A DNA stretch of 55,980 nucleotides, taken from contig NW_027592381.1 in the NCBI RefSeq assembly GCF_964213995.1, positions 1-55,980 of the forward strand, written 5' to 3'. Positions 55 through 42,740 of the stretch are shown one piece after another (within the stretch, counting starts at the first letter, position 1; the number at the start of each line of letters is the position of its first letter). Both the position numbers and the translations under genes were made by a program. Source of the stretch: Mustelus asterias. Its lineage: Eukaryota. Below the pieces are notes generated by a model that did no database searches, was not told the DNA's origin, and worked only from the letters and a program-made list of their open reading frames with translations.

Positions 55-94
55 ATGGGAATCCTTGTTTTCACCCTGTGTGCCTGTTTACCCT
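55..94 (+). pseudogene. Leader exon of NAR-TCR V1 (MGILVFTLCACLP), splice donor disrupted
   Basis: Hydrophobic leader homologous to 10768-10810; the donor reads T|GATGAGT instead of C|GTGAGT, giving an in-frame TGA. Confidence 0.8.
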
Positions 95-244
95 GATGAG
101 TACCGATCAAACTAACCCACATTGTGTGGATTGAATATAAAGCTGCCTCGTGTTCATCTCAATTACAGACACTGTCTCGGATTTTAGCCCCTTTGTTTGG
201 TTCGGCTCTGATGGTCCATTAAACTCTCTGTGTTTAATTTCCAG

Positions 245-535
245 GATCTTTCAATCAGCCAGTGACACAGAGCCTGGCAGCGTTGACCAGGAAGGAGTGT
301 CAGTCTCTTACCATCACCTGTGTTTTCTGTGAAGTTCATGATTTAGAAAATGGTCATTTTTTCAGACAAATCCAGACCGGGATGGAGCAGGAGCGGGTCA
401 CCAGCGGAGGGAGATTTATTGTATTGGTGAATAAAGCAGAAAAGACATTTTCACTGGAAATTCGGGATGTGAAAGTTGAAGACAGTGCCACCTATTACTG
501 TAACGTTCAGCACTGGTACTACTCACATAGGACAC
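245..535 (+). pseudogene. NAR-TCR V segment 1 (IgNAR-like V, open frame, defective signals)
   Basis: Acceptor ttccag|GA (phase 1); VTQS..KECQSLTITC..GHFFRQ..ERVTSGGRF..TFSLEIRDVKVEDSATYYC; short C'-C'' region as in VNAR; non-canonical FR1 Cys typical of NAR-TCR V. Confidence 0.85.
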
Positions 536-563
536 CGCATTCGGAGAGAGTTCGACAAAAACC
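536..563 (+). other. Degenerate 12-RSS of NAR-TCR V1
   Basis: CGCATTC + 12 bp + ACAAAAACC; aligns with the intact CACAGTG-12-ACAAATACT of cassette 2. Confidence 0.8.
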
Positions 564-897
564 TCAGGATAATCAAAACAGTAATTCCCATCAATTCCCA
601 TGTTCGGTAACTTGACTTGTCGGTTTGATGTTATTCCCAGTTCAATCTAGTTTAATTTCATTTTAATTTCCACCTATCAGTAATAATTCTTCCAGGTTTT
701 TCGCCATTAATAAGAATCTTGCATCTCTGCTCCTGTTCCTGGGATATTTTACCAGGAACTCAGAGAGTCACAAGGAAAAGTTTGATCCAATGAGGTTTTT
801 TTTAAACAACCAATGTTCATTATGGATTCAAATCCCCTGAATAACCGAGAAACACTGATTGCTCGGTAATGGCTGCTCGGCAGTTTGAGGTGTCAGT

Positions 898-936
898 CAT
901 TCTTGTGCTGGGCTGACTGAGAGCGCTGACACTGTG
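898..936 (-). other. 23-RSS 5' of NAR-TCR J1
   Basis: Plus strand reads CATTCTTGT + 23 bp + CACTGTG immediately before the J coding sequence. Confidence 0.85.
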
Positions 937-988
937 GGGAGAATGGAGATTGCAGATGGGTCTGGGGCGGTGGTGACTGCCACAGCCG
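937..988 (+). CDS. NAR-TCR J segment 1 (GRMEIADGSGAVVTATA-G)
   Basis: DGSGxVVT motif like IgNAR J; phase-1 donor G|GTAGGT matches the phase-1 acceptor of the supporting Vdelta at 4134. Confidence 0.85.
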
Positions 989-4026: not shown

Positions 4027-4133
4027 AAATTCAATTAAACAAATTGCTGCAACAGCCAGGTATTAACCCGATTGACAAGTTTCCAGGATAAACGGCGACG
4101 AAACAAACAATTCATTTTATTTCTACACTGCAG

Positions 4134-4439
4134 ATTCCAGCTCACCTGTGTCACCAAGTTCCCTTCTACAAACATCTGCTGCCGGCGACACGGTTATGTT
4201 AAGTTATGAATATTCAGGTTTCTGTCAGGACACAGTACACTGGTACCGTCAGACCAGAGGACAGACTCCGAAGTGCCTGCTTCAGACATACACTTCAGGA
4301 GACGAGAATAAAGCAAACGCTGTCGCGGGGAGAATTTCTGCTTCTATCGAATCTTCAGTCAAAATCAGCCGGTTAAAGATCTCCAAACTTCAACTGAGCG
4401 ACTCCGCTGTTTATTACTGTGAAATGAGTTGGCGCACAG
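4134..4439 (+). pseudogene. Supporting TCR delta V segment 1 (leaderless, CDR1 Cys); first canonical Cys lost
   Basis: Acceptor ctgcag|AT; GDTVMLSYEYSGFCQDTVHWYRQ...LQLSDSAVYYC; no leader exon seen; Cys23 replaced by Tyr; RSS CATAGTG-23-ACAAAAACC at 4440-4478. Confidence 0.85.
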
Positions 4440-4478
4440 CATAGTGTCACAGAACACGGAGACAGCTGTACAAAAACC
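4440..4478 (+). other. 23-RSS of supporting Vdelta 1 (unit 0 of the tandem array)
   Basis: CATAGTG + 23 bp + ACAAAAACC, followed by TGAACATGGT, the start of the array linker. Confidence 0.85.
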
Positions 4479-4488
4479 TGAACATGGT

Positions 4489-6901
4489 TCAGAGGAATTC
4501 ATCAGGCGAATGAGGCTGCGGGAGTTCTTCCACAAACCCCAAGAGGCCAACAGCGAACACAATGAGACAGCTAATGAACCGGAACAGCAGACAGAGAGAC
4601 CCGCAGTGCAACCGAAGAGGAAAGAGTCGAATTGGACTCCTCTGGAAGGCCGCTGCCCTCGACTTGACATGTATGCCCAAGCCATCAGGAGGTGCGTCAA
4701 CACCAAATTCATCAGCCGAACTCACAAGACAGCACCGAACATCACCCAAGCACAACGCAACGCCATCCACGCTCTCAAGACCAACCGCAACATTGTCATC
4801 AAACCAGCAGACAAAGGAGGGGCCATCGTCATACTGAACAGAACGGATTACTGCAAAGAAGTGCACCGACAACTAAACAACGAGGAACACTACGGAGAGT
4901 TACCCACAGATCCGACCAAAGAACACACCCGTCAACTCAACACTCTGATCAAAACCTTTGATCCGGACCTTCAGAGCACCCTCCGTGCTCTCATCCCACG
5001 TACTCCACGCGTTGGAGATCTCTACTGCCTCCCAAAAATACACAAGGCAAACACACCCGGCCGTCCCATCGTTTCAGGAAACGGAACCCTGTGCGAGAAC
5101 CTCTCCGGCTATGTCGAGGGCATCTTGAAACCCATTGTACAAAGAACCCCCAGCTTTTGTCGCGACACTACGGACTTCCTACAGAAACTCAACACACGTG
5201 GAGCAGTTGAACCAGGAGCACTCCTCGTCACAATGGATGTCTCGGCGCTCTACCACCAGCATCCCCCACGATGATGGCATTGCTGCAACGGCCTCAGTAC
5301 TCAATACCGTCAACTGCCAGTTTCCAGATGCAATTTTACAACTCATCCGCTTCATCCTGGACCACAATATCTTCACCTTCAACAGCCAGTTCTTCATCCA
5401 GACACACGGAACAGCCATGGGGACAAAATTCGCACCTCAATATGCCAACATCTTCATGCACAGGTTCGAACAAGACTTCTTCACCGCACAGGACCTTCAA
5501 CCGATGCTCTACACTAGATACATCGATGACATTTTCTTCCTTTGGAGCCATGGTGAGCAATCACTGAAACAACTATATGATGACATCAACAAGTTCCATC
5601 CCACCATCAGACTCACCATGGACTACTCTCCGGAATCGGTTGCATTCTTGGACACACGCATCTCCATTAAGGATGGTCACCTCAGCACCTCACTGTACCG
5701 CAAGCCCACGGATAACCTCATGATGCTCCACTTCTCCAGCTTCCACCCTAAACACGTAAAAGAAGCCATCCCCTACGGACAAGCCCTCCGAATACACAGG
5801 ATCTGCTCGGATGAGGAGGATCGCAACAGACACCTCCAGACGCTGAAAGATGCCCTCATAAGAACAGGATATGGCGCCCGACTCATCGATCAACAGTTCC
5901 GACGCGCCACAGCGAAAAACCGCACCGACCTCCTCAGAAGACAAAAACGGGACACGGTGGACAGAGTACCCTTCCTCGTCCAGTACTTCCCCGGAGCGGA
6001 GAAGCTACGGCAACTCCTCCGGAGCCTTCAACATGTCATTGATGAAGACGAACATCTCGCCAAGGCCATCCCCACACCCCCACTTCTTGCCTTCAAACAA
6101 CCACGCAACCTCAAACAGACCATTGTCCGCAGCAAACTACCCAGCCTTCATGAGAACAGTGACCACGACACCATACAACCCTGCCACAGCAACCTCTGCA
6201 AGACGTGCCGGATCATCAACATGGATGCCATCATCTCATGTGAGAACACCATCTACCAGGTACACGGTACCTACTCGTGCAACTCGGCCAACGTTGTCTA
6301 CCTGATACGCTGCAAGAAAGGATGTCCCAAGGCATGGTACATTGGGGAAACCATGCAGACGCTACGACAACGGATGAATGAACACCGCTCGACAATCACC
6401 AGGCAAGACTGTTCTCTTCCTGTGGGGGAGCACTTCAGCAGTCACGGGCATTCAGCCTTGGATCTTCAGGTAAGCGTTCTCCAAGGCGGCCTTCACGACA
6501 CACGACAGCGCAGAGTCACTGAGCAGAAACTGATAGCCAAGTTCCGCACACATGAGGACGGTCTAAACCGGGATGTTGGATTTATGTCACATTATCAGTA
6601 ACCCCCACAGCTTGCCTCCTGGACTTGCACAATTTCACAAGCTGTACTGTCTGGAGACAATACACATCTCTTTAACCTGTGTTGAATGCTCCCTCCACCC
6701 ACATTGTCTGTACATTTAAGACCTGGCTGGCTGTAGAGATTTGCATTCTAATCAGTATTCTGTAACTTGATTTCTGTGTCTGTGCCCTGTTTGAGAACAG
6801 AGACCACTCCATCTGACGAAGGAGCTCTGCTCCGAAAGCTTATGGTATTTGCTACCAAATAAACCTGTTGGACTTTAACCTGGTGTTGTGAGACTTCTTA
6901 C
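4489..6901 (+). mobile_element. Penelope-like retroelement (RT + GIY-YIG endonuclease), 5'-truncated, one frameshift near 5255
   Basis: KPADKGG, LPKIHK, GRPIVS, GTAMG, RYIDD RT motifs; VYLIRC..YIGET..RMNEH GIY-YIG motif; stop at 6601; 3' region with hammerhead core and AATAAA. Confidence 0.95.
6805..6846 (+). ncRNA. Minimal hammerhead ribozyme motif in the Penelope 3' repeat
   Basis: CTGACGA - GGAGC/GCTCC stem - GAAA - GCTTA; minimal hammerheads are an established feature of Penelope-like elements. Confidence 0.7.
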
Positions 6902-7211
6902 GATGATTACAGACACAGTGATTTGGTAGACGGAAAAAGCTTTACAAAAACCTGAACATGGTGATGATTACAGACAGAGTGATTTGGTACACGGAAACAG
7001 CTTTCCAGAAACCTGAACATGGTGAGAATTACAGACATTGTGATGAAGAACACGGAGAGAACTGTACAAAGGCCTGAATATGGTGAAGTTTACAGGCACA
7101 GTGATTTCGAACACGGAAACAGCTAGACGGAGACCTGAACATTGTGAGGATTACAGACATAGTGATACAGAACACGGAGAGCTGAACAAAAGCCTGAAGA
7201 TGAATTACAGA
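6902..7211 (+). repeat. Tandem array of 23-RSS units, 61-bp period (5 further units of cassette 1)
   Basis: Heptamers at 6914 (CACAGTG), 6975 (CAGAGTG), 7036 (CATTGTG), 7097 (CACAGTG), 7158 (CATAGTG), each followed after 23 bp (21 in the last) by an ACAAAAACC-like nonamer and a 22-bp linker. Confidence 0.92.
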
Positions 7212-7215
7212 TTCT

Positions 7216-7518
7216 TGTAGTCCTCACCATGTCCATGTTTTTGCACAACTCTCTCCTTGTTCTGTATCACTGTGTCTGAAATCCTCACCATGTTCAGGTT
7301 TCTGTCCAGCTCTCTCCGTGTTCTGTCTGACTGTGTCTGTAAGCCTCACCATGTTCAAGTTTCTGTATGGCTCTCTCCGTCTTCTGCATCACTGTGTCTG
7401 TAAGCCTCACCATGTTCAAGTTTCTGTACAGCTCTCTCCGTGTTCTGTCTCACTGTGTCTGTAAGCCTCACCATGTTCAAGTTTCTGTACGGCTCTCTCC
7501 CTGTTCTGCATCACTGTG
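7216..7518 (-). repeat. Tandem array of 23-RSS units, 61-bp period (5 units, cassette 2)
   Basis: Heptamers at 7512-7518, 7451-7457, 7390-7396, 7329-7335 (CACAGTC), 7268-7274; nonamers ACAGAAACT x3, ACAGAAACC, GCAAAAACA, all at 23 bp. Confidence 0.93.
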
Positions 7519-7824
7519 CTGTGTGCCGACTCAGTGCACAGTAATACACAGCGGAGTCGCTCAATTGCAGCTTGGAGATCATTAACCAACTGATTTTTTC
7601 GACTGGGTCGACAAAAGCAGAAATTCTCGCCCCGGCAGCGTTTTCTTTGCTCTCCTCGCCTGATGTGTGTCTCATAAGCAGGTATTTTGGAGTTTGTCCT
7701 GGAGACTGACGGTACCAGTACAGTGTGTGTTGACAACGTCCCTGATATTTGCAGTTTAAAGTAATGGTGTCGCCAGCAGCACACGTTTGGAGAGACGAAT
7801 TCTGTGCCACAGATGAACTGGATT
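7519..7824 (-). CDS. Supporting TCR delta V segment 2 (leaderless, CDR1 Cys), apparently intact
   Basis: Acceptor ctgcag|AA; GDTITLNCKYQGRCQHTLYWYRQSPGQTPKYLL...LQLSDSAVYYCALS; canonical Cys/Trp/Cys; CACAGTG-23-ACAGAAACT. Confidence 0.9.
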
Positions 7825-8365: not shown

Positions 8366-9877
8366 CAAATGGCAAAAGAGCGAGGGGCAAATATTTAGAT
8401 GATTTTTATTTTATCACACAGCGAATTTTGCTCAATTGGATCCTTTGGAGATGTGATTTTGGGAACATATTCAGCACTCATTTTAAAACCGCCAATGGAA
8501 GAAATATACAGAATCAGATTAGAATTCCGGTGGTTTTGAAGAGTAGGAAGGTAACAGAGGTAAAGTTCAGTAGCACCTGCAAATAATCGCCACTTGGTCA
8601 GAATGATGTCCTTTTCCGGTTTCTCGTTTTATGTTTTATATTTAGTGTCTGCTTCTGTGTATATTGGCGATTTACAAACCTGAGGAAATTACATGAAAGT
8701 TCACTTTTCTCACTATAACAATTGCTGTCCAGAGTTGATTGACTGAGAGTAACCCTACCTTTTTATATCCTGGGTCACATCAAGATTCAAGCGAAGATGG
8801 TCATACTCGCCCAGCGAAACTAATTATGCGAAAATGATATTGCATATCTGTGTCAAAGATCAACCTTTGACTACCGTTTAACTCTTTGCACAGTTTCGTC
8901 CATCGATTCTACAATTTATATTATATATTAGAATGATTTTCAGTTAATACCAGTGGATTTCTAAATCTGAGTTGTTCTCTTTGTGCTGCTTGCGATTTCT
9001 TGCCACCATGAGAACCGGTCCCAGACACTCTCCAATATCAGTTGAGATCAGCATGCTCAGTTTCCCCGATTGACTTGCTCACTGTTACTCACTGTGAAAA
9101 TTGCCTTTTCAAGGTGCCTGAGATTTTCAATTCATTCCATCCATTGGTTGATTGTTCCCCATGCTTTCTGGGCAGAATCCTCTCTGTATTTTATATTATA
9201 TAGACTCTACAGAACAGAAGTAGGCCAGTCGGCTCACAGTACGCTTGTCCTTGCACTGCGCACGTACCTACGCCCCTGTCACACTCGATCCCTAACGAAA
9301 CCTTTGTACACTGAGCACTGTGTCCTTCTCCCTCCTCGATTTTTCACGCCGTCAGAAAAATTCCTTACGCCATTTACTGCAACCACTCCATGTGGTAGCG
9401 CCCTCCACATGCCTCCTAATTTCTTTTTCTTTTATCTCACTGGCATCATATTAAATGTTTCGTTAATCTGAATCGTTTTCTCCACACGTACATTAATGAA
9501 CCTATAAATTAATGCTAAAGATTTATATCAACAACAAAAACTGTAAAATGTTGGCAAACCTCAACAGGTCTGACAGCATCTGTGGAGACAGAATAGAGTC
9601 AACGTTTCCAGTCGGGATGACCCTTCGTAAGAGCCACAGAGGGAATCAAAGTTGACACTAGGACAGAAGTCATAGCTTCAAAATGTGGACCCGACTCCAG
9701 TTTCCTATTCTGCTCCCAAATCTAAAACTGCAATTGAAAATCTTCCACAGAAACCCCCCTTCCCCCACGCTGCTATTGTAGTCACAGCGGATTGAAGAGA
9801 GGCAGACTACAAGAATGAACTGACGGCGAAAACGAACCAGGACATTCTGCAATACGGGGGGATTTGGAGTCACTTAC

Positions 9878-9930
9878 CAGCTGAGACAGTCACCACCGTC
9901 CCAGACCCATCTGTAAATCTCCACTCTCCC
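9878..9930 (-). CDS. NAR-TCR J segment 2 (GEWRFTDGSGTVVTVSA-G)
   Basis: DGSGTVVTVS motif; donor G|GTAAGT; heptamer 9931-9937, 23-bp spacer, nonamer ACAAGAATG at 9961-9969. Confidence 0.9.
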
Positions 9931-9969
9931 CACAGTGTCAGCACTCTCAGTCAGCCCAGCACAAGAATG
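9931..9969 (+). other. 23-RSS of NAR-TCR J2
   Basis: CACAGTG + 23 bp + ACAAGAATG. Confidence 0.88.
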
Positions 9970-10300
9970 ACTTACACGTCAAACTGATGGGGAAAAAATT
10001 ACCGAATAGTCAGCGTTTATCAATTATTCAGGGGTTATAGATCAGCAATGAAGTATGATAGTTTTATAATTCCCATTGGAACAAACTGTTCCTTGGGACA
10101 CTCTGAACTCTTGGCAAAATGGCCCAGGAACGGAGCGGAGATGGACGCTTCGTAGAAATGGAATAAAAAAGTTAAAGAAAGATAACTGAACGGAGGAAAT
10201 TACAACGAAATTAAACCATGTTGCAACGATAATAACCACAACCCGACAAGCTGTGGTCCGTGTCCTGGAAATTATTGCTTCGCTTGTTCAGAAATACTTA

Positions 10301-10328
10301 AGTATTTGTTCTCCTCTCTTCCACTGTG
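10301..10328 (-). other. 12-RSS of NAR-TCR V2
   Basis: CACAGTG + GAAGAGAGGAGA (12 bp) + ACAAATACT on the minus strand. Confidence 0.9.
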
Positions 10329-10619
10329 GTGTCCCATGTGTGTAGTACCAATGCTGAGCTTTACAGTAATAGGTGGCAGGGTCTTCAATTCTCATGTCCC
10401 GAATTTCCAGCGAAAATGTCTTTTCTGCTTCATTCACCGACACAACAAACCTCCCTCCGCTGGAGATCCGCTCCCGCTCTGTCCCAGTTTGGGTTTGTCT
10501 GAAGAAATGGCCATTTTCTAAATCGTAAACACCATTGAAAACACAGGTGATGGTGAGAGACTGACACTCCTTCCTGGTCACCGCTGCCGGGCTTTGAGTC
10601 ACTGACTGACTGAAACATC
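10329..10619 (-). CDS. NAR-TCR V segment 2 (open frame; canonical splice acceptor mutated)
   Basis: VTQSPAAVTRKECQSLTITCVFNG..GHFFRQ..ERISSGGRFVVSVN..TFSLEIRD..TYYCKAQHWYYTHGT; the acceptor position reads TT instead of AG; alternative CAG sites lie just downstream. Confidence 0.85.
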
Positions 10620-10767
10620 AAGGAAATTAAACACAGAGAGTTTAATGGAGCATCAGAGCCGAACCGCACAACGGGGCTAAAACCCCAGACAGTGTTTGTA
10701 ATTGAAATGGACTGGGGCAGCTTTATGTTCAATCCACACAATGTGAGTTAGTTTGATCGGTACTCAC

Positions 10768-10810
10768 GGGGTAAATAGGCACACACGGTGAAAACAAGGA
10801 GGATTCCCAT
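10768..10810 (-). CDS. Leader exon of NAR-TCR V2 (MGILLVFTVCAYLP)
   Basis: ATG, hydrophobic leader, phase-1 donor C|GTGAGT, upstream ATATAAA. Confidence 0.85.
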
Positions 10811-12368
10811 CGCTCTGCTGCCTGGAACTGAGGTTTATATGACGGGGAGCTGAGACTGCAGAGCTGGACTGCTCTTGGAGACTGGACCTCAGAGCTGAAT
10901 TGAAATACTTCAGACCCGAACACTGGTAAGATAGGCCACGCCCATCCTTCAAATTAAATTCAAGGATTTAAATGGTGAATGCAGCTGTGAACTTTCAGTC
11001 AAAACTACCCGGCAGCCAGAACACAGAGACTCATCCCGCTACCCACAGCAGTGTCTGCCATGCTCTACTTGCTCTCGAGTAGATTATTTATTGTTATTAA
11101 TTCAGGGGATGTGGGCTTGGCTGGCGATGGCAGCAGCCATTGCCAATCTCTAATTGCCCTTGATAAGATGCTGGTGAACTGCGTTCTTGAACGGTTGCAG
11201 TCCCTGCGGTGTAAGTACACCCTCCGCACGATTCGGGAGGGAATTCCAGAATATTAACCGAGACCGACGGACAGTAAAGGAACGGAGGATATTTCTAAGT
11301 CTGGATAGTGGTGGTGTTCGCATGGCCTTCTAAATTGTAGCTGTTTTGTGTCTGAAATGAAGCGCCTAAGGAGGCTTGGTGAGTTCCTGCAGTTCATCGT
11401 GTACATGGTACAGAAGGTTGCCACTGTGCATCGTTGGTGGAGCGAGTGAATGCTGGTGAAAGCGGCACCAATCAAACGGGGCTGCTTTGTCCTGAATGCA
11501 ACGCCCTGTAAATTGGAATCTCAGTGTGCAACTTTAGAACCACCTCCTTTGTCTGAGTAAGAAGGACAGCTTCACTGGAGGCGCATCCGACTAATTGTAC
11601 TTCCTGTGTTATTCAGAGCAGCTGACTCAGTTTACACTCCTTATTCGCCGGAGTCAAACAGCGGCTGATAGGATCAAATGAGATCAAACCCACAATAGAG
11701 ATATTAACTGCGAAACAGCGGGATACTTAGGAGGATTCGAACAGTTGGATTCTAGTTCGACTTCCGGAACCCTTCAAAGTCTGTGGGAAATTTAATTTTA
11801 AGGGAACAAAAATGTGAAAGAATTTATGGGTTCCCCTTTTGATTCTTGTTCTGAAGCTCGATGAGTCCTTTAGCTTGCAATAGAACGAAGTTTTGTCACA
11901 TAACTATTGAACGAGGGGTGGGTGTGTAAACAAGGAGTGAACATTGGGGCATTTAAGGGGATAATAGAGGATGGATGGATGAACGGACCGACAGTAGGAT
12001 GAATGGAGGGACGGACGGATGCGAGTTTTGAATGACCATTCACTTTGATTGAGTGAAATTTACAATAGTTTGCTGCAGTGAAAAATTAGGTAATTGGAGG
12101 GAAAGAACATTGGATGTATGTATGGAAGACGCTGAAGGTGTTGGTTCAAATTGCACTTTAAAAACTATATAGAATTCGTGCCTCTATTTATAATGTGCAA
12201 ATATAAAAACAAAAGGTTTTTTCACAGGTAAACAGGCTTCACTTGAAGTATGTCAATCACGAGAGAAAGAGAGTTAATGTTTCGAGCCCAAATGATCCTT
12301 CTACAGAATCTGAACAAAAGTCATATGGACTCCAGATGTTAACTCTGCTTCTGTCTTCACAGATGCTG

Positions 12369-14261: not shown

Positions 14262-14571
14262 ATCAGAGTGATGGAGATTCAATTCCTCAGTCCATCGCAT
14301 CAGTGAGCGTGAAAGAAGCTGAAGCCGTGACTATAAAATGTATCTATAGCACTACAGAAGAAAGGTATTATGTATATTGGTACTTGCAGCAAGCAACGAA
14401 AGAGCCCCAGTTTGTTGTGTGGAGATGGTCTTGTGATGTTGTGGAATGGAAAGGCTCGGCGTTAGGAAATCGTTTTGCATCAGACCTCCAGCTGTCAGAC
14501 TCCACCACAAGATTAACCATCATGGACCTGCAACCGACTAACGCCGCCGTTTATTACTGCGCCCTGGGACT
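14262..14571 (+). CDS. TCR alpha/delta V segment (open frame; start codon and acceptor look mutated)
   Basis: DSIPQS..VTIKCIYSTT..YVYWYLQQ..PQFVV..RFAS..LTIMDLQPTNAAVYYCALG; good RSS CACAGTA-23-ACAAAAACT at 14572-14610. Confidence 0.85.
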
Positions 14572-14737
14572 CACAGTAATAGAAAACAGTACCTACGCTG
14601 TACAAAAACTGTCTTCCGATTGAAACTGCGATTCCTGCCTGGTGAGATTGTCTAAAATCTCGGAAAGGTGCAGTCACAACGAGGCTGTCAGCCACTCAAA
14701 CACATAGAGGGGAATTCAATTACCCTCTGTTAATTGA

Positions 14738-24570: not shown

Positions 24571-27202
24571 CATCCAGCCGGATCCCTGAAAGGGCAATCA
24601 TGGTGTCCCTTGAACAGGTGAATGGTGATAAAATGAATGTCTCCTTACAAGTCAAATCTTTTGAAAATATTTTTCTAGCGAGTGTGTTGTGCTGACGGAT
24701 TCCCTGCAGTTTGTACTTAGATTCTCAAACCAAACCACATGTGAACGCATCTCGAAGTCTCTATCGGAAAGAAATGAACAAAACCTGCGGATTGGGCAAT
24801 AGAAATCAACATTACGTGGCTCGCCCTAGACCAACGAGCGTGCCCTTCCGGTGCATTAACCAAAATATAACTAATTTGTTTGTATCCAAAGCAGCGCAGA
24901 CATTTCTGATAAAAGCCATCAGTGTTGGAAAAAATCAGCACGTCAGCATTTGAGGACTGAATGCACAGTGGTATTGTCACTGGACTAATAATGCAGAGAC
25001 ACAGGGTAACGTCCTGGGGAACTGCTTTAGAATCCCACTCTGGCATTCATATCAGAGTTATGCATTGATGATGGTTTTGGGTGACATGTTCCCCCTGCGC
25101 TGCGTGGGTTTCGTCCTGTTGCTCCGGTTTCCTCCCACACTCCAAAGATGTGTCTGTTAGGAGCATTGGCCACGCTAAATAGCCTCTTAGTGTCCGGGGA
25201 TGCGGAGGCTAGCAGTGTAAATATGTGGGCCTACGAGTCTGTTGTTGGTGCAGACTTGATGAGCCAAATGGCCTACTTCTGCACTGGAGGGTTTCCATGA
25301 TGTTGCTAACTCGAATGTTAGGAACTGGACGCTTTTGAGTATGAAGTACACATTTTACCCGCTACACAGCACAAACAATGCCGAGCGCCAAGCTCAACGG
25401 AGGTGATTTGTTTTCAGCATACCAACAGTAATACCAACCTTGACAACTCATCATAATATGTCACGTCAAACAATATAAGTTCGCTATCAATGCTAAAATA
25501 ATATTTCTGCTTCGACATTTGTTTTTAATGACGTTTTCTCCGTCTTGTTACTGGCTGCGGTTGTGAGCCTGCAATTCATGTCCCTATCAGAGTCCATGTC
25601 CCTCAATACAAGAAGGCAACCGTTACTTTCAACGTGATGCCTCAACGTATCTGGAATTTCAAAATTTAAAAGCGTTCATCCCGCAAATGTCTAAGGGAAC
25701 AGTGATTTCTGCTGTAAATCATAGAATCATCGAATATGCTCAGTCATTAATGCATCATTCTCATCTTCCGTCGAACAATTTCAAACAGTATTTGTTCTTC
25801 ATTCAACATTTAAAATCTATACATTTAATTAACATATATGTCCTCATTCCGAATTGAATATCTCTGAAATGTACAAAAATGGAATGCAAACATGACTGAC
25901 CAACAAAAGAAATCGAGCCACCGGGTCATACACATACCAATCAAGGAATGTCTTTCTATTTGTCTCATTCAGTGAATTCATAATGATCAGAGAGTATGAG
26001 GATGCCGCAGTAAATATGAAACGGATAAGTGAAGTCAGCAACACTCATTTCAGGTCATTTGTGATCTCTGCTGATGCATTGGTTGGAAATGAACATTCTT
26101 CACCTGATATAAGGAGAGATGGACTTAGGCGCATAGGATTCACAGAATAATAGGGAGTGAAATGGACAGAAACACAATGACAATGACAAGTCAGTGAAAG
26201 AGTTAGGGGGAGATACAGTGAGAGAAGCAGATAGAAAAAAGGAGAAGCAATGATTGAGATGGCAGAAGAAATTCAAGGAAGGCATAAAATCAACAGTATA
26301 AAGTACAATCTGATATGGGAAAGATTTATCTTGAAATATCATTTAAATTGAACTCTGATTGTGGAGCATAAGACCACAGGTTCATTTAAATAAATTTAAA
26401 TTTGGGGCACAGATCAAGGAAGTTGACGAATGTAGCAGAGTCCAAAAAAATATCGTGGTCTCCTAACAAGTAAGGCAAATTATAAGGATGGGTGCAGTTT
26501 TCTGAATTGGCGACTTATGATGAGAATTATGAGAGTCCCCATTCCCCCAGTGCCATGCGTCTTATTGATTGATTAGGTGCAGTGGTCAGGAATACGTAAT
26601 GAATGGGCTCCCTCTGTTGGCGGTGACTGTTAAATTGCCTTATTTCTGGAGATTCACTGTATTCATTATATTCTCAAATTATGTGAATGCCAAATGTTCC
26701 CTGATTTGGATTATTGTTATTGTGATGTAAACTATAGGTTGTAGGACTAGTGTGAAACTGAATGCGAGTTGTTTTCTGCACAAATAGCTTTGAAATTTGC
26801 TGTTGAGTGCAATGACGTTGGGTTCAACGCCTGCAATGTTCTGCGAACATTCCCCAATTTAAAAGTAATTCTTTAATTCAAACCGTGGTCGCAAACAATG
26901 GGTATATTCCCATTACCATGACATTAATTGTATCGCAGCTCGATGCATTTCCATTCTCTGGTTTCCAGCCCACCACCGACTTGTAGAGCAAGAGCACAAA
27001 AGTGGCCTGATTGTCTTTTGGAAGAATGAGTCGAGTATGGTTCTGTGCTGGATCTGCCTGCCAGGTTGGATTTTGGGTGGTGGTTTCATCTGAGGTTAAC
27101 TTGGTTTCCTCTGTGTGTGTGTTTGAGAGGCTGACAGCTCAGATAACATCTGGCCATTAAGCAATCCTCAATCGTCACGGGATCGTTCCTCCAGTGTAAG
27201 CA

Positions 27203-27374
27203 GGCTTTTGCACGAAGGTGGGCCTTCTTTCTATCATTGTGCGTCTGAACACGCAGTAATAAGCGGCAGCATCAGTCAGGCTCAGGTCTAATATATTTAA
27301 ACTGATGAATTTCTTCGAGGCCTGGAGATCTACATAAAACCGACTTTTAGAAACATCTGCTTTATATTCATAAC
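27203..27374 (-). pseudogene. 3' half of a TCR alpha/delta V with 23-RSS, truncated at an LTR
   Basis: YEYKADVSKSRFYVDLQASKKFISLNILDLSLTDAAAYYCVFR; CACAATG-23-GCAAAAGCC; the LTR starts at 27375. Confidence 0.85.
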
Positions 27375-27947
27375 TGTCAGGGGAAGTTTCTTGCTTCATA
27401 CCACCAAAAATGACAAGCAGACATGAGTACAGTACAAACAGGCAACACAAGCTTTATTCCCTGTCCAAATAAAAAGCCACAGGCTTGGGGGAAGACAGCT
27501 GCTAGCCAACAGCTTTCTGTGGCCATTGTGCGCTTTACAATTTATAGGGTTTTGAACTTCGCGCCAAATGTATGGTAATGGGCTCATTCAAAGTGGTTGC
27601 TGATAACATGAATGGAACCCACGTGGGTTATTGTCATTCACTACAAGTTATGTGATCAGTAACTACTAAAACAAATAACACAAAGCAGTGACACAAAAGC
27701 GAAGTATTGAAAAGCCATTATAGATAGTTGGAGTTGATCTGTGGCTAATGATGAAGTGATCATATTTCCCCTGAGCTGATCTCATTCTGGAGGGTTCCCT
27801 TTGTGATTTGAAGTTCTTGCATAATCGAATCAGTTGAGCTATTGTCTATGTTTTCCCTGCCTGGAGTCTACAGTGATTAAGACTGAAGTGATTAGGGGGT
27901 GCAAGGAGCCTCTCCATGAGTCATTGTATTGCTGTGAGGTGCTGACA
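27375..27947 (-). mobile_element. ERV LTR (3' LTR or independent related LTR)
   Basis: TGT...ACA termini; colinear with 36876-37389; TATAAA and AATAAA on the minus strand. Confidence 0.85.
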
Positions 27948-29833: not shown

Positions 29834-31157
29834 CTAGGCAGTGTAGTCGCGGAGCTGCGGTTGAGAAGGAGTCTCGGTGCGATACGCGGCGACAGCAGTT
29901 AGCCTGGGCACAAAACCTTTACAAATTGCACTCAGACAGTCAGTCAGCACACAGCAAGCAATGACTATGCCAATTAGAACCATGGCTCCCTGCATTAAAA
30001 ATACCCCCCATGAGCCCCCCATCAGCCAATCCATCCAACTGCTGTTGGGGATCTCATGTAGTTTGTCACTTCGTTGTGAATGTGTTCCGCTAAATTCGTA
30101 AGGTTCTCTGAGGCGTCAGGGATATATGTACAGCATTCTGTTCCTATTAAGGCACAGGTACCTCCCTTACTCGCAAGGAGATAATCTAAGGCTAGGCGGT
30201 TCTGTAGGGCTACTGTACTAAGGGCTATTAGCTCGCTGTTTACCTCTGCCACAGCCTCCGCAGTAGCATTAGCAACTTCTTCCAGAATGCGATTTTCCTT
30301 TTGCACTCGTGCTGTGAGTTCGCCCATCTGTAATCCTAGCCCTCCCAGGGAAGGAATAAGGATTCCCAGGTACGGAAAGGCCCCCCTCCTCTGGATACCC
30401 TCCTTCCATCGGCGATGCTCCTTTAGGGTGGGGATGTGGTGTATGTAGGGAATAGCATAGCCTAGATAGCATGACCCTGCCCAATCATGGGGGAACCAAG
30501 GGTATGCCCTGTGACCGCAGACAAAGTAAGTTCCATTATAAGCAGCAGGGCTGTTTAAAATTCCTGGCTGCAGAAGGATCTGCACCGTGCTGTTTGGTGC
30601 ACACTGGACTCTAAGGGAACTATCAGGTGCTGCTGGCGTAATGTTGAAGGCGTGGCTACAGTCGCTCTTCCCTACTCTGAGGGCCCTGTCTGTCCCTGTT
30701 TTGGATATACAGACTGGCCTGATTGGGCGCCCTGTCCCAGTGGTGTTCGTCAGGGTCAGGGAGGGTGACTGGTGTGTGCGGTCATGACCCAGCAGTCGCC
30801 ATCTACCGAGTGTCCCTGCCTTGCACCCAGCAGACTGTAGCTTCTCCTGTATAGATTTAAGGTGGTGCGTGAGGCTCCTGCCTGCTTCCTGTATAACCCA
30901 CTCTACGGTCTCTTGGGCTCTCAAAGGGATTGGCCTGAGGGGGATTCCAACTTTGGAATGTGGGTACATATCCAGCATTTCGATGCATTCCATTTCTTAG
31001 CATATACACGCGACATATACAAGTACGTATTTACATTCAACTCGCGTCGGTAACGTTTTGAGAGACAGTCTCCCCTGCCACGCAGTAAAGCATAAAAACA
31101 AACAGCGATATACATCTTCCTGTCCGGTGCTGTGACCTGCCTGAAAAACAGGTACAA
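29834..31157 (-). pseudogene. env: ERV envelope, gamma-type, frameshifted
   Basis: CWIC (CxxC) in SU; fusion peptide AFPYLGILIPSLGG; ISD LQNRLALDYLLA; CX6CC (CALIGTECC); TM anchor in the adjacent frame. Confidence 0.9.
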
Positions 31158-31183
31158 TGAGCTTGGAGGTACAATTATTCTTA

Positions 31184-34100
31184 TTAGACTCGCATTACTG
31201 GATCATTGCTGTTCTCGCATCTTTTTAGTTGTGACCAATGCTTCCATTGCCCCTTTCCCCTGATTTCAACGCAGGCGCAGGTATCCCCACTAATGAGGAC
31301 TCGGTGTCGTCCCGACCACCGGGGCGCTAGACCAGGCCTTTCAGGTAGCAATGTAACCATTACATGGGATCCTGCTTTTCGCACTGTGGCCTGTTCAGGG
31401 TACTGCCTTTCTTTATCTTTAAGTTCCTGCTGTTCTCTCGCCTGCTGTCTCATTTCTTTTAGCTGCTCACTCAGTTCTAAGACATATCTGCTGATTTTGT
31501 CTGTTAAGGGTCCAAAATCTTCCCCTCCGGTAATTATGCCTGGGGGCAATTGCGTGGCCCGCCCGGTCATCAGTTCGTAACGCGATTAGGGGATGAGTTT
31601 CATAAGCACAGTGGGTAGGACCTCTGTCCTCCTGTTGTGTTTTCCATGTCAAGCCTTTGCGAGAGCGGACTGCAGGGTCCGATTCATCCTCTCGACCATA
31701 CCTGAACTCTGTGGATGGTAGGGGATGCGGAACTTCTGCTTTATTCCCATCGACTCGCACGTCTTTTTCATAACTGTTCCCGTGAAGTGGGTGCCCTGAT
31801 CGGAATCGATCTGCAAAGGGACCCCCATCTGGGAAATACTTCACTCGCTAGGATTTCTGCAACAGTGGAAGCAATGCAATCCGGGTGGGGAATGCTTCCA
31901 CCCACCGGGTGAATAGGTCAATTATGACTAAACAATATCTCTTGCCCCCTGATGCGGGAAGTGGTCCTGTGAAATCTATCTGGAGATTTTCCCAAGGCCT
32001 CCGGGGTCTTGGATGGTGAGCCATTCGGATCTTTATGGGTAGCCCGCGGTTGTGCTGCGCGCATATGAGACATCGCTGACAGTATTCAGCTATGTCTCTT
32101 CCCATCGCCGGCCACCAATCCCTACTCAGGAGATGATTCATGGCGTTTCTGCCAGTGTGATCACGGCCATGGTTTAACTGCAGCAGGGTGCGCCTGATGC
32201 AATCTGGGGCTATTACCTTTCTTTCCTTCCTCCAGGCGCCCTGGGCATCTGGTTTCCCGCCTCTTTCTTCCCAGACCTGCTTCTCTGCCTCGGGGGTGTC
32301 CCGGTGTAACTGGACTATATCCACACTGTCTGTGGTGATACTAGGTGTTGGGAGAGCGTCACTTAAAACCTGCTGCGCTGCCTTATCAGCTGCAGCGTTC
32401 CCTGCTTGTTCTGGAGTTTCTATTTCCCTATGCACTTTGACTTTAATTACTGCTGCTTCTTTGGGCAGCTTTGAGGCGCGGGATAGAGCTTCAATCCTTT
32501 CCTGGTGCTTTATCCTGTCCCCTCCCGACGTGACAAGCCCCCTGCGATCCCAGGCGGCCATATAATCATGTATGACTCCGAACGCGTATTGGCTGTCGGT
32601 ATATACATTCACGGTTTTGCCCTCTGCCAGGGTCAGGGCCTGTGTTAAAGCCTCTAATTCTGCGACTTGTGCTGACAGGGTGCTGGCTAATCGCCCTGAG
32701 GCTTCCACTTCTAACTTGTCGATAACTGCTGCCCACCCTGTTTTGGGGGTACCGTCAATATATTTCCAGGACCCATCTACATAGAATCTTCAATCAGCCT
32801 GTCCTCAGGGGAATTCTTCTACTGGGGCTGCATCTACCTCTAGGTCGATTTCAGCGCACACATGTAATTCGCCAGTGGCTAAAATCCCTGCAGCGGGGTT
32901 TACTCCTGTGTCCCTTATTATAGTGATTGATCGACCTTTGGGGAGCAGAACTGATTCCCACTTAGCTCTCCTTTAATTAGAGACTGCTCTGAGCTTACTA
33001 TTGTTAAGCATTTCAACGATGGTATGCCTGGTGTGGAGGATGATTTCCCCCGTCATCACCGTGGGCTCGCTAATACTAACTGCCCATGCAGCACAGTCAA
33101 TTGCTGCAACGCAGCAGGACGAGCCGGCTGCCACTGGTGACTGCTGTGTGGAGCAGTAAGCTACGGGTCGCAGGGTTTCCCCATGTGTTTGGGCTATTAC
33201 TGCGGCATAGAATCCCTCCTCATTCTCACAAAATATATGGAAGGGCTTCCTCGGGTCAGGTAAACCGAGACTCGGAACTGCTATAAAGGCTTGTTTTAAC
33301 CTTGCATAAGCTTCCTCCTGTTCGGGTCCCCATTCTATCAGTTTGCCCCCCGGGGCCTCCCCCATTTACTAGCCGCTGTATGGGCTCGGCTAAGGTGGCA
33401 AAATTGGGAATAAAGGTTCGGCTGTAGTTGAACGGTCCCAAAACCTTGCGGACTCCCCTCAGGGAGACTGGCCTGGGCATGACCTGGATGTGGAGATGCC
33501 AGCGTTGGACTGGGGTAAACACAGTAAGAGTTTTAACAACACCAGGTTAAAGTCCAAAAGGTTTATTTGGTAGCAAATGCCATTAGCTTTCGGAGCGCTG
33601 CTCCTTCGTCAGATGGAGTGGATATCTGCTCCATCTGACGAAGAACCAGCGCTCCAAAAGCTAATGGTATTTGCTACCAAATAAACCTGTTGGACTTTAA
33701 CCTGGTGTTGTTAAAACTCTTACCATGACCTCGATGGAAACCCTCCTCTCGTGAGGCATGGTCCGAGTACCCTGGGATATCTCCTGTCCTAAGTACATGA
33801 CAGTGTCTCTTCCTGTATGGGCCTTTTTGGGGTTCATCGTCAACCAGCCCCTTTCTAAGGCTCGCAGCACCTCAATCAGGGCTACAGGATGTCCTTGCCT
33901 GTCTTCTGAGGCAATTAGGATGTCGTCCACATACTGAAGGACAGTGAAGCGGTCGGGGGTGAGATCTACTCCCTCTAATATCCTATTCATAACCTGGTGG
34001 AAGATGGCGGGACTGTTGTGGAACCCCTGAGGGAGTCTCGTCCAGGTATATTGCTTTTCGCCCACAGTGAATGCAAATTTGTCCTGAGACTCCGTGTCTA

Positions 34101-34945
34101 ACGGCACCGACCAGAAGCCATTTGCTATGTCTAACACCGTGAAAATGCTGTACTTAGGGCCCTATCCATTCAGGATTATGGAGGGGCTTGCCACTATGGG
34201 ATGTACTTTTGGGGTGACTTTGTTAAGCTCTGTATAATCGATTGTTAAACGGAAGGTTTTATCGGGCTTTGCTACTGGCCATACTGGGGAGTTTGTGGTA
34301 CTAGTAGTGGAGCGTATTACCCCCCTCCCTTCTAGGTCCTGTACACGAGCCCACACGGCTTGGTATGCCTCCGGCTTTATGGGGTACTGTCTGTGTGGTT
34401 TGTGGTCTGGGGTGGGAACATGGACCGGATCCATAGGAACCTTTCCTGTGTCCTGCTTATCCCTGGCCCATACTTCTGTCAGTACTTTACAAATTATTCC
34501 AAAAGGCTGGGGCTCTGTGTCCCAGTCCCTCTGAAACATTTTAACGCTCCCGATCATTGCGATGCTTTGGCAGGATTGGTGGAGCTTACATTTGTTCCCA
34601 TTACTGTGGGACCAATGAATCTTATGATTCCTGGGGTCTATGAGTATGCTTAATTCCTCTAAAATATCCATTCCTAGCATAGTTCCCTCGTTGTTCTGGA
34701 ATACAAAGAACTGGACCGGCACCGGTCGCCCTGCTACCTCTGAGACTACCGTCTTGCTCTTGTAAGCCTTAATACAAGTTCCCCCCTACCCCAACTAGGT
34801 GGGTGTAATCCTTGGTCACGGGAAGGGGTAGGTCGGTCAGGGATACAGAGGCTCCTGTGTCTACTAACATTTCGCAAGGCAGGCCCCCCAGGAGGGCAGG
34901 CACGTAGACAAACTTGTCTCCCTCTGTGTCTATGGGAGCCGCCTG
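31184..34945 (-). pseudogene. pol: ERV pro-pol (protease, RT, RNase H, integrase), multiple frameshifts
   Basis: LVDTGAS (~34855); LDIANGFWS, LPQGFHNSP, QYVDD; AELEAL..VYTDSQYAFG, GNAAAD; H..H..CQRCLIC, WENLQIDFTGP, IIDLFTRWVEAFP. Confidence 0.93.
33491..33723. mobile_element. Palindromic Penelope-derived insertion inside ERV pol
   Basis: Two inverted ~100-bp arms, each with a hammerhead-type core; flanking repeat CATGACCTSGATG at 33478-33490 and 33724-33736. Confidence 0.85.
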
Positions 34946-34948
34946 TGC

Positions 34949-36320
34949 TCATGCCTTCCCCTGGTCCCTCAGCCATTTCAGGAAGGCTTCCTGCATGTCT
35001 AAGTGGGGTTCGGGCTTGGGCTTGAGCCTGCACTGCTCAGCTGAGTGACCTGTTCTGCCACAGGTCCCACAAGCTTGTCCAGGTTCTGATCGACAGTGCC
35101 GAGCTATGTGCCCGGGTCTTCCGCAGCGGAAGCACTTAGATGTTGGTTTAAAGTTAGGGGCATCTATTTTTGAAGAGGCTGTCCGGGACCAGGGTGCGGT
35201 TCGGTTGCTCCCTGCCCCGGCCCTGGCATCTACCCGGCGTGCCCACTGGACTGCGGTATCGTAGGCGTCTGCAGTGACGATTCCGAATTTTAAAACTTCC
35301 TGATGTGTCGGGGAAAGCCCGTCTAAAAACATTTGGATGCACGGGGCATCGTTAGGGTCGGGGTTTTCCTGCCCGGACGACTCATAATAAGCCTCATGCA
35401 GGCGAGTAGCATAGTTGCTGCTGGATTCTCCCTTTTCCTTCCTACAGGATTGGAGTGTTCCCCAGTTGGTGGCAGGGTTTCCCAGAGCTGTACAGACTGC
35501 ACGTTTAAAGGCATTATATGCGTCCCTGGATGGCCCTGGAGGCATTGTTAGGGACTCCGTTCGCCCATGCCCCATCCTGGATCGTGGAGGTGACAGGGTT
35601 CTCCGGGTCAGTGCTGGTTAGAGTCCTCCATTCATCTGAGAGGCACTTCGCTCTGACTATCTGGTGGATATCACGGGGGTGGAGATCGTGGACATCCCAC
35701 ATCTCCTCAAGAGTCCTACAGAACTCTGTATTTTTACTTCGGGTGCGCAGAGTACCTAACTCCTTTCGGATAGTCTGCTTTTCTAAGGGAGTGAATGCTT
35801 TATAGCGATCCTGGCCATTAGCTGTCCTCTGTACTGGGGCACATTTCTGTACGCTGCCGGGTTCGTACTCGGGTGGTGCACTAGGAAGTGCGGGGTACAC
35901 CGAAGACGTGGTGGTCTCCGGGGCGCTAATTTTACGGGTTTCGGCTCATAATTCTGGGATCCGAGCCTCTAAACTTGCAATACTCTTCGTCTTTTCCTCT
36001 AACTTTTCCTGGTAAACCAGGTTCATACGGACCGCTATCATTAACTGTTTAACTAAAATTACTGCAGCCTTTTTAGAAGCGTCCCGCTGGTGGCTATTCC
36101 ACCATTCCCTTTGTAGTGGGAAGGACGCACAGGAGTCCCATCCCTCCTTTCACATTTTCCTGATTAGTTTCTGCTGTTGCATCCCAAATATAAGAGATCC
36201 TTCTGGCCCCCATTCTAGGGAGAGGCTATCCTCTTGCTCCCTTCCTCCCCTTACGTATGCGCAACCTACTTCAGAATCTCTGTCCTGGGGTAATCTTTCC
36301 TCGGGCTTTCCTTCATGGGG
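34949..36320 (-). pseudogene. gag: ERV gag with two CCHC zinc knuckles, frameshifted
   Basis: CFRCGRPGHIARHC and CGTCGRTGHSAEQC; PSAP and PPEY late-domain motifs; MHR-like KEKGESSSNYATRL; 5' boundary approximate. Confidence 0.85.
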
Positions 36321-39775: not shown

Positions 39776-41400
39776 TCCTAATTGAATGGCGCATGCCTAA
39801 TTGACAGGGGGCACTCCTAATTGACAGGTGGCACGCCTAACTGACAGGGGGAACTCCTAATTGACAAGGGCACTCCTGATTGACGGGGGGCCCTCCTAAT
39901 TGACAGGGGCACTCCTAATTGAGACTCAGCACTCGTAACTGAAAGAGTCGCTGCTCCAAATCTAAATAAGTTGCATTCCAAACCGCTATAAGTGCACTCC
40001 AAATCGAGATAGGGGGCACTCCAAATCGAGATAGGGGGCATTCCTAATGGAGATATAGGTGGCATTCCAATCGAGATAGGGGGCACTCCAAATCGAGATA
40101 TGGCGCGCACTCCAAACCAAGATAGGGTGGGCACTCCAATTCGAGATAGGGGGCACTCCAAATCGAGATATGGGGGGCATTCCAAACCGAGATATGCAGG
40201 GCACTCCAAATCGTGATACGGGGAGGTTGGAAAACTCCAAATCGAGATATGGGGGGCACTCCAAATCGAGGGATTGGAGGATCTTCAAATCGAGATATGG
40301 GAGGAACCGCAAACCCAGATATGGGGGCACTCCAAATCGGGATATGGGGGTGCACTCCAACTCGAATGGGGGAAATCCAATTCGAGATAATGGCACACCT
40401 AGTCAAGGTAGGGGCATGCCTAATTGACAGAGGGCACTCATAATAGACAAGGGACACTCATAATTAACAAGGGGCACTCATAATTGACCCAGCCTCTCCT
40501 AATCGAAATAGTGAGCACTCCAAATTGAGATGGGAGCATTCCAAATCAAAATAGGGGGCATTCCAAATCGAGATATAGGGCATTCCTAATTGACCCGGGG
40601 CACTGGAAATTGACATTTGGAACTCATAATCGATCGGGGGCACTCCGAGTTGACACTGGCACATAATTGACAGGGGGCGCACCTAATTCACCCAGGTATT
40701 CCTGATTGGCGGGCCACCCCTAATTGACAGGGTCACCCCTAATTGACGAGGCCACCCGTAATTGACAGGGGGCCCTCCTAATTGACATTGGGGCACTCCT
40801 CATAGTCATGGGGGGGGGGGGGCGGGCACTTGTCATCGAGATGTGGGGCACTTGTCATCGAGACAGGGAACACTCTAAATCGAGATGGGGGTCACTCCAA
40901 ATCGAGATAGGAGATGCTCCTAATTGAGATCGGGGGCACTCCAAATCGAGATAGGGGTCACTACAAATCGACACGTGTACTGGTAATTCACAGGGGGCAC
41001 ACCTAATTGACCTGAGCAGTCAGAAATGACAGGGGGTACTCATAATGGAGACTGGTATTCCTAATTGTCTGGTGGCACTCAAAATGGGCAGGGGGCACTC
41101 AGAATTGACAGGGGGCAATCCTAATTGACCAGGGCACTCATAATTCACCCGGAATTGACAGGGGTCACTCCTAATTGACTCGGGCACTCATATTTGAGAT
41201 TCGGGCACTCATAATTATTCGCTGCTCCCATAACTGAAATAGTCGGTCTCCAAATCTAAATTGAGATAGAAGGCTCTTATTCGAGTTAGGGGATGCTCCA
41301 AATTGGGATGGGGTACTCTAAATCAGGATAGTGAGCAATCTAAATTGAGATAAGGCACACTTCAAATTGAGATAGAGGTCTCTCTTATTGGAGATGGGGG
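39776..41400. repeat. Degenerate ~20-22 bp satellite with two alternating unit types
   Basis: Blocks of CTAATTGACAGGGGGCACTC and CCAAATCGAGATAGGGGGCACT. Confidence 0.9.
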
Positions 41401-42053: not shown

Positions 42054-42317
42054 TCTGTGTTAAATGCAAATATAATTCTCTAAGTTGAGAGAGACACCAA
42101 TCTTGTAAATGCATTTTCGTGAAATCTAATACAACTGGGTCCAATTCATTACAAGCATTATCATACAGTATCTTGTTTGTATTTATTATAACGAAACCAT
42201 TTTGAGGTGCAGGACACGAATACTTAATTGGTGGAGATGAGGGAGTAGAGCAAAATTCATATTCAAATGTACCATGTGCCAAGGAGGGTACCGAAGGGTT
42301 AGGTTAACTATCTAATG

Positions 42318-42740
42318 TACTGACCCTCTGACATTGCAGCACCAGCTCAGTACTGACTCTCTGACAGTGCGGCATTCCCTCAGTACTGACCCTCTGACAG
42401 TGCGGTGCTCTCTCAGTACTGACCCTCTGACAATGCAGCACTCCCTCAATCTGACCCTCTGACAGTGCAGCACTCCCTCAGTCCTGATCCTCTGGTAGTG
42501 CAGCACTCCCTCAGTACTGACCCTCCCACAGTGCAGCACTCCCTCAAACTGGCCCTCTGACAGTGCGGCACTCCCTCAGGACTGATCCTCTGACAGTGCG
42601 GTGCTGTCTCAGCACTGACCCTCTGACAATGCAGCACTCCTTCAATCTGACCCTCTGACAGTGCGGAACTCCCTTAGTACTGATCCTCTGACAGTGCAGC
42701 TCTCCCTCAGTACTGATCCTCTGACAGTGCGCCCTCAGTA
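42318..42740. repeat. ~33-bp minisatellite
   Basis: (CAGTACTGACCCTCTGACAGTGCAGCACTCCCT)n, about 13 copies. Confidence 0.92.

Follow-up and report, generated by a model that had tools for sequence, protein, structure and literature searches.

The NAR-TCR of cartilaginous fish was reportedly described by Criscitiello et al. in 2006. In the available portion of PMC1845163, its hallmarks are a V segment with a leader, a cysteine in the a-b loop and no WYRK tryptophan, and a leaderless second V with a cysteine in CDR1, and the standard form is assembled somatically from V, D and J (PMC1845163, PMC5931798 and PMC3457774, in the portions available). Several antigen receptor genes are, by contrast, already rearranged in inherited DNA. 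Shark immunoglobulin (Ig) includes partially germline-joined clusters (VD-J), which the available parts of PMC4279169, PMC6795676, PMC8355894 and PMC2193156 attribute to RAG activity in germ cells. In the excerpted text of PMC12269197, the opossum segment MODOVH3-1 / GRAG3-1 is a partially germline-joined VH-DH with the 12-RSS of D, reported to be used in V(D)J recombination and present in two species. Among T-cell receptors, the marsupial TCR-mu has a germline-joined Vmuj (PMC7615758, PMC3457774), called the only such TCR case in the accessible text of PMC7615758, and the newt TRD has a fully germline-joined V-J (PMC12698447, accessible text). Leaving the primary NAR-TCR papers aside, the available portions of PMC12227049, PMC3457774, PMC5931798 and PMC3149040 contain no partially joined TCR and no joined or D-less NAR-TCR cassette, and the term NAR-TCR is absent from the available part of one elephant shark supplement (PMC3964593).

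Here, we analysed a stretch of 55,980 nucleotides of the Mustelus asterias genome (hereafter, the window) holding a NAR-TCR cassette with a germline fusion of V and D, likely the result of one old germ-cell RAG join, so that intact members of its lineage would need a single VD-J join; we hold this reading with good confidence. The cassette shares with the standard NAR-TCR its leader, a VNAR-like V (a-b loop cysteine, no WYRK tryptophan), its own J and a leaderless supporting V-delta with a CDR1 cysteine, but its V is pre-fused to D and flanked by a 12-RSS. Like the VD-J genes of shark Ig, it is a gene of the cluster type that is inherited with V and D already joined and one somatic join left; those genes, however, serve B cells, whereas this is a T-cell receptor cassette whose joined form makes up the majority of the loci found. 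The closest working model is the opossum VH3-1, likewise a V fused to D and flanked by the 12-RSS of D, yet that is a single IgH segment of a mammalian translocon, neither a TCR nor amplified. With TCR-mu and the newt gene, the cassette has in common a TCR V with germline-fixed recombination, and with TCR-mu also the two V domains. Both of those genes are, however, fully joined and invariant, and the joined domain of TCR-mu is the supporting one, probably retrotransposed, whereas in the window lineage it is the outer, presumed antigen-binding domain that is half joined, with its leader intron kept. The second and better preserved of two cassettes in the window (cassette 2) is laid out as follows.

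10839-10834, minus strand: TATAAA ahead of the leader
10810-10768, minus strand: leader exon of the NAR-TCR V (MGILLVFTVCAYLP), with a GTGAGT donor at 10767-10762
10621-10620, minus strand: position of the V-exon splice acceptor, TT here and AG in the 11 other loci of the sub-lineage
10619-10329, minus strand: V exon, terminating in YYC-KAQHWYYTHGT
10619-10363, minus strand: NAR-TCR V up to the second cysteine, VNAR-like, in an open frame, with the a-b loop cysteine (RKECQSL) and HFFRQ replacing WYRK
10362-10329, minus strand: tail of 34 nt after the cysteine codon
10362-10339, minus strand: V-encoded portion of the tail (KAQHWYYT), 22-24 nt, where unjoined Vs end
10338-10329, minus strand: junction and putative D remnant, CA then TGGGACAC, translated in frame as H-G-T, with an uncertain boundary between junction and D
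10328-10301, minus strand: 12-RSS, consisting of CACAGTG (10328-10322), a 12-nt spacer and the nonamer ACAAATACT (10309-10301)
10300-9970, minus strand: former D-J spacer, 331 nt, D-free
9931-9969, plus strand: 23-RSS of J, CACAGTG-23-ACAAGAATG, with the nonamer at 9969-9961 and the heptamer at 9937-9931
9930-9878, minus strand: NAR-TCR J (GEWRFTDGSGTVVTVSA) with a DGSGT motif and a GTAAGT donor
7824-7519, minus strand: leaderless supporting V-delta, in an open frame, with the CDR1 cysteine (GRCQH) and a heptamer at 7518
7222-7522, minus strand: five tandem 61-nt units behind the supporting V, each with a 23-RSS

The V of this cassette carries the NAR-TCR marks of leader, a-b loop cysteine and missing tryptophan, and in a PDB sequence search its top 16 matches were all VNARs (best E 1.5e-18). 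C33 is invariant in 34/34 aligned proteins, the downstream supporting V-delta has both its CDR1 cysteine and a 23-RSS, and related two-V models are known in many sharks and rays. The outer V is without a separate D in the window cassette, while separate V, D and J segments are present in 15 sister cassettes.

The first-pass annotation had read cassette 2 as a V tail whose 12-RSS is directed at a J with a 23-RSS, the interval being free of a D, and the located signals agree with it. In 100 dinucleotide shuffles of the 56 kb, a 12-RSS of equal quality turned up at a rate of 0.01 per shuffle, and this one is the only one of such quality in the window; the J nonamer has 3 mismatches to the consensus. 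The annotation had staked its reading on the absence of a D between 9970 and 10300, and a relaxed RSS scan of 9938-10300 (spacers of 11-13 and 22-24 nt, at most 6 mismatches) revealed no signal-flanked D, its sole match being weak and borrowing the J nonamer. A cryptic RSS with a 24-nt spacer, starting from CACATGG within the tail, was rejected, as it has 2 heptamer mismatches and is unable to pair with the 23-RSS of J. The same layout had been proposed for cassette 1; there, the tail and the overall design are present, but the 12-RSS is one by homology only, because its heptamer has decayed.

55-988, plus strand: V and J of NAR-TCR cassette 1, V-D lineage, decayed, with the leader donor lost and the heptamer CGCATTC
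502-535, plus strand: tail of its V, NVQHWYYSHRT, followed by the decayed heptamer CGCATTC at 536-542
4130-4475 (start approximate), plus strand: its supporting V-delta, decayed, with tyrosine for the first cysteine and the heptamer CATAGTG

Searches of the own genome, together with fetched stretches, gave at least 65 NAR-TCR V loci whose V end is complete, some of which may be haplotype duplicates; this set omits 2 partial matches, and a protein search gave two more partial matches on contig C122, left unclassified. Forty loci are joined like the window cassette, 15 are unjoined, 3 have D joined to J and 1 carries a separate V-D join, the rest being 2 inversions, 3 loci cut by repeats and 1 truncated locus; a completed VD-J join was found in 0/65. 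The standard V-22 / 12-D-12 / 23-J form coexists with the joined one in the same genome, in the 15 unjoined loci, although J spacers there are of 22 or 23 nt (V-22 / 12-D-12 / 22-23-J), with 22 nt in one sub-family. The V RSS spacer is likewise 22 nt, not 23, in 22/22 NAR-TCR Vs of this genome with their own RSS. Three NAR-TCR Vs with an intact 22-RSS have a V-D spacer interrupted by repeats (G000:C89:1479830, C128:282843 and C325:250692), and no D or J was found within ~9 kb of them.

The joined form is germline and not somatic: its 40 loci occupy 22 contigs, some of them on the 20-Mb contig C71, and comprise 29 distinct sequences, and the same tail occurs in an ENA record (P0064, see below). 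Some singleton joins in the family do have unjoined counterparts of almost identical sequence and are perhaps somatic, which would be in keeping with the view that the window form, too, arose in a T cell as a V-D intermediate or is an artefact of assembly. With spacers diverged down to 72% identity, copies on C71, and a Logan contig of run X1, possibly the very sample behind the assembly, that crosses the fusion junction and differs at 3 of 380 nt, we give that view a negligible probability.

The origin of the joined form is best read from the sequence between V and J. The 398 nt from the V heptamer to the J heptamer of the window align over their whole length with the D-J spacer of 15/15 unjoined cassettes, and the alignments begin at position 0 of both heptamers, i.e. 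that of the window 12-RSS and that on the 3′ side of D. Scores were 152-180, against a mean of 25 and a maximum of 34 in 200 shuffles, whereas the V-D spacers of the same 15 cassettes scored 20-33, which is shuffle level. The nonamer ACAAATACT of the 12-RSS also shares the signature of the D 3′ RSS of unjoined cassettes, which end in GCAAATACC. Because the V-J spacer is a D-J spacer from the D 3′ heptamer onwards and the V-D spacer is absent, the cassette is inherited with V already fused to D; the same alignment places the origin of the 12-RSS on the 3′ side of D, with the V's own 22-RSS, a V-D spacer of ~400 nt and the D 5′ RSS lost. In an unrooted spacer tree (28 distinct rows, of which two were shortened to 110 nt), 40/40 joined loci stand on one side of a 100/100 branch, as do the joined loci in an unrooted tree of J plus intron (J was matched in 54/64 loci), and both topologies fit one old joining event. 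A germline V-D fusion that preceded amplification, as the first-pass annotation had proposed, is therefore upheld by the spacer identity and by the grouping of the 40 loci. Neither tree contained an unjoined sister of the joined lineage, and no parent D was found.

Since the trees are unrooted, they alone do not give the direction of change, and the joined form could in principle be an ancestral D-less design, with V-12 facing J-23 as in a light chain and D inserted later elsewhere. We consider this highly improbable, as the 12-RSS and the spacer belong to D, NAR-TCR V is described as VDJ-rearranged in the available portion of PMC1845163, and Vs of distant sharks and a skate end 24 nt after the cysteine, with a heptamer-like read-through. 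Specifically, H-S-D stands 8 codons past the cysteine in 10 of the 71 first proteins (Cetorhinus, Hemiscyllium, Amblyraja, Chiloscyllium) and is likely a heptamer read-through, and P0068 of Chiloscyllium punctatum is an unjoined V ending in KARYWYYT, followed by HSD and by an onward frame that fits a 22-RSS. The possibility, raised at first pass, that a 12-RSS without D is ancestral in all sharks is thus contradicted.

The junction is short, and most of the tail belongs to V. Unjoined Vs end 22-24 nt after the cysteine at 22/22 loci with their own 22-RSS, and these ends include KADYWYY, KAQYWYW and KAQHWYG. The aromatic stretch is therefore V sequence, as the unjoined Vs and P0068 already end with it, and two ideas of the first-pass annotation are not supported, namely an origin of the tail GGTACTAC..TGGG from D and the creation of the aromatic CDR3 by the fusion, as its QHWYY is V-encoded. 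Only the last ~8-10 nt of the tail (H-G-T) are D-like. Among 8 distinct Ds, TGGGACA lies inside TAGTGGTTGGGACAGT and TGGGAC inside TAGTGGTTGGGACCACT, while 8.8% of random 12-mers would share a stretch of 6 nt or more with at least one of these Ds. There are no P nucleotides at the junction, and its 2-4 bases (CA or CACA) equal the heptamer start, the sub-lineages having CACA, CGCA, CTCA or CAGA. This structure may reflect trimming of the D 5′ end plus 2-4 extra bases, as would result from a RAG coding join in a germ cell in which the 5′ part of D was lost, V stayed untrimmed and 2-4 nt were added or kept.

RAG is the likely agent of the fusion, given that the breaks lie at RAG sites, that the family contains D-J joins and exact signal joints, and that joining in germ cells has been reported for shark Ig, where N addition is scarce according to the available portion of PMC2193156. 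The same product, working alike, could have come from a plain germline deletion with breaks 2-4 nt into the V heptamer and inside D. That the junction bases CA/CACA are the heptamer start is in keeping with such a deletion, as are the short homology it could have used (the V RSS spacer starts with ATGGG and D has TGGG) and a young V-D join that likewise has C after an untrimmed V. Nevertheless, both breaks would then have fallen within a few bases of RAG sites across an interval of ~430 nt, the junction bases differ by sub-lineage, and the exact signal joints in the family show that RAG cuts these signals, which makes a plain deletion unlikely.

The other rearranged loci of the family are RAG-type products, although the singletons among them may be somatic. 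The separate V-D join (G000:C110:85037; L087, L132) consists of an untrimmed 23-nt V end, one C and a D minus its first 7 nt, with the 12-RSS kept, and has an anatomy like that of the joined lineage with the parent known; its upstream 470 nt are identical to the unjoined cassette C71:14347738, and it is crossed by one X1 contig (72 nt, 0 differences, depth 3.5) and by none among the matches listed for X2-X4. At three loci (G000:C173:94620, C90:1134569 and C119:339193), D is joined to J and V is free, with three different junctions, two of which have a single A fitting a P nucleotide. One inversion (G000:C122:392718-399100; L130) has fused the coding end of a NAR D to that of a supporting-type V and contains at 398928/398929 an exact signal joint of the 12/23 type, beyond which 23-RSSs are stacked. 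In the other (G000:C110:114505; L073, L131), a V coding end sits on the J RSS in a hybrid-joint-like arrangement, the D region is inverted and the V 22-RSS forms an exact signal joint with another 12-RSS.

Whether T cells use the joined lineage is a separate question. Checks of intactness (leader, donor, acceptor, frame, CAC heptamer and J) were all passed by 15/40 joined loci, i.e. 9/12 of the window sub-lineage and 6/6 of a second one; 25/40 fail at least one check, 2 of these only because the leader pattern missed the leader, and a dead heptamer is common to 16/40. The spacers of the two intact sub-lineages are 72% identical (28% of sites differ), whereas their Vs have dN/dS values of 0.077/0.261 and 0.066/0.289 (Fisher p 0.006 and 0.0008; ratio ~0.25), and of the 33 bases of their tails only 2 or 4 differ (binomial p 0.002 and 0.024, if the rate of the spacers is assumed). 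Between the second sub-lineage and a decayed one, dN/dS is 0.141/0.126. The V-region tree does not unite the joined lineage (3 changes, weak base), and V exons have probably been exchanged among cassettes, which could mimic purifying selection.

Beyond this genome, the ENA record P0064 reads EAQYWYYTHGT and then PQWNGEGQIP in an open frame, that is, the joined-lineage tail and a read-through of the 12-RSS. Its top-scoring matches in the M. asterias genome are 77-80% identical and none exceeds 85%, so that P0064 is not encoded in the assembly and likely comes from another shark. The CDR1 of P0064 resembles the unjoined GGF(F/Y)ARAL family, unlike its joined-lineage tail, a combination that hints at V-exon exchange between cassettes. 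P0064 was the single record with the joined tail outside the own genome (one of four matches in protein searches); among the 206 proteins examined, only P0001, P0009 and P0064 have the tail, and a metagenome scan for it returned 3 unrelated loci (24 residues at 54%).

The fusion may be real and its descendants nonetheless a neutral relic, spread by segmental duplication and unused by T cells, a view that concerns use and overlaps with the other explanations. The failed checks at 25/40 loci, the dead heptamer shared by 16, the missing acceptor of the window copy and the many near-identical copies on unplaced contigs all accord with it, and gene conversion may account for the conservation of the V exon. 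However, two deeply diverged sub-lineages have kept leader, splice sites, frame, CAC heptamer, J and tail, and P0064 shows the same form with an open frame; on balance, we regard a neutral relic as somewhat improbable.

Several gene models were considered as signs of use and rejected. The RefSeq models P0004 and P0009 on the window contig are annotation artefacts and not rearranged CDR3s, as their extra residues lie in the spacer itself (10146, 673). P0001, in which the tail is spliced to J at the GT of the heptamer, might suggest expression without RAG, but it combines a weak donor with a purine-rich acceptor and appears to be an artefact of the same kind. In an AlphaFold model of P0001 (mean pLDDT 83.6), KAQHW forms part of a strand while YYAHGT occupies the apex of the loop, the junction being an annotation product, and a fold search with this model gave generic two-V constructs only.

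If intact members are used, RAG would, in T cells, pair the former D 3′ 12-RSS with the 23-RSS of J, and this single cut-and-join would complete the domain because V and D are already fused. The VD-J product would then be spliced to the supporting V-delta, itself rearranged separately to delta D-J. The predicted CDR3 has a single N region, a D read in one frame only (H-G-T) and some three additional fixed residues, its aromatic start being that of an ordinary V, so that CDR3 diversity in the joined lineage would be lowered, not abolished. A more speculative reading, less likely than not, is that an old germ-cell RAG join has become a selected, semi-invariant, innate-like gamma-delta receptor in more than one shark, with a germline W-Y-Y-x-H-G-T loop in its outer domain, favoured early in life by having one join fewer, and that RAG still edits the locus in the germline, of which the separate V-D join, the D-J joins and the inversions would be signs. 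Germ-cell activity of RAG is recognised in the antibody clusters of sharks; a NAR-TCR lineage that is half joined, amplified and, it seems, conserved would add to these a TCR locus and, with it, a presumed antigen-binding domain. As joined and unjoined sisters share one genome, ordinary repertoire sequencing could test whether the skipped join biases use, timing and CDR3 diversity, and the partly fixed CDR3 offers a handle on NAR-TCR ligands.

The window copy itself differs from the copies on C71 and C153 at 6 positions over 9850-10900, among them TT for AG at the V-exon acceptor, overlooked at first pass and unique to this copy (1/12 loci in its sub-lineage), and a Thr-to-Pro change near the second cysteine. 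Owing to these two changes, this copy is likely non-functional or poorly spliced, and it is likely to represent either an allele or paralog that has died or, on this small contig, an error of the consensus.

Two stacks of 61-nt units with 23-RSSs stand tail to tail behind the supporting Vs of the window, with 4.5 copies on the plus strand (6905-7202) and 5 on the minus strand (7222-7522), and a reverse-transcriptase element (~4480-6900) sits between the plus-strand stack and its V. Other TCR-like V segments of the conventional type, or RSSs with spacers of 23 nt, are found at 14339-14610 (plus), ~27200-27500 (minus) and 55840-55878 (minus). Judging by the list of open reading frames, ~30000-35600 (minus) holds broken frames like gag, pol and env of an endogenous retrovirus-like element. 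Two degenerate tandem arrays lie further on, one at 39776-41217 with units of 19-24 nt, many containing TAATTGAC, and the other at 42317-42730 with 12.6 copies of a 33-nt unit.
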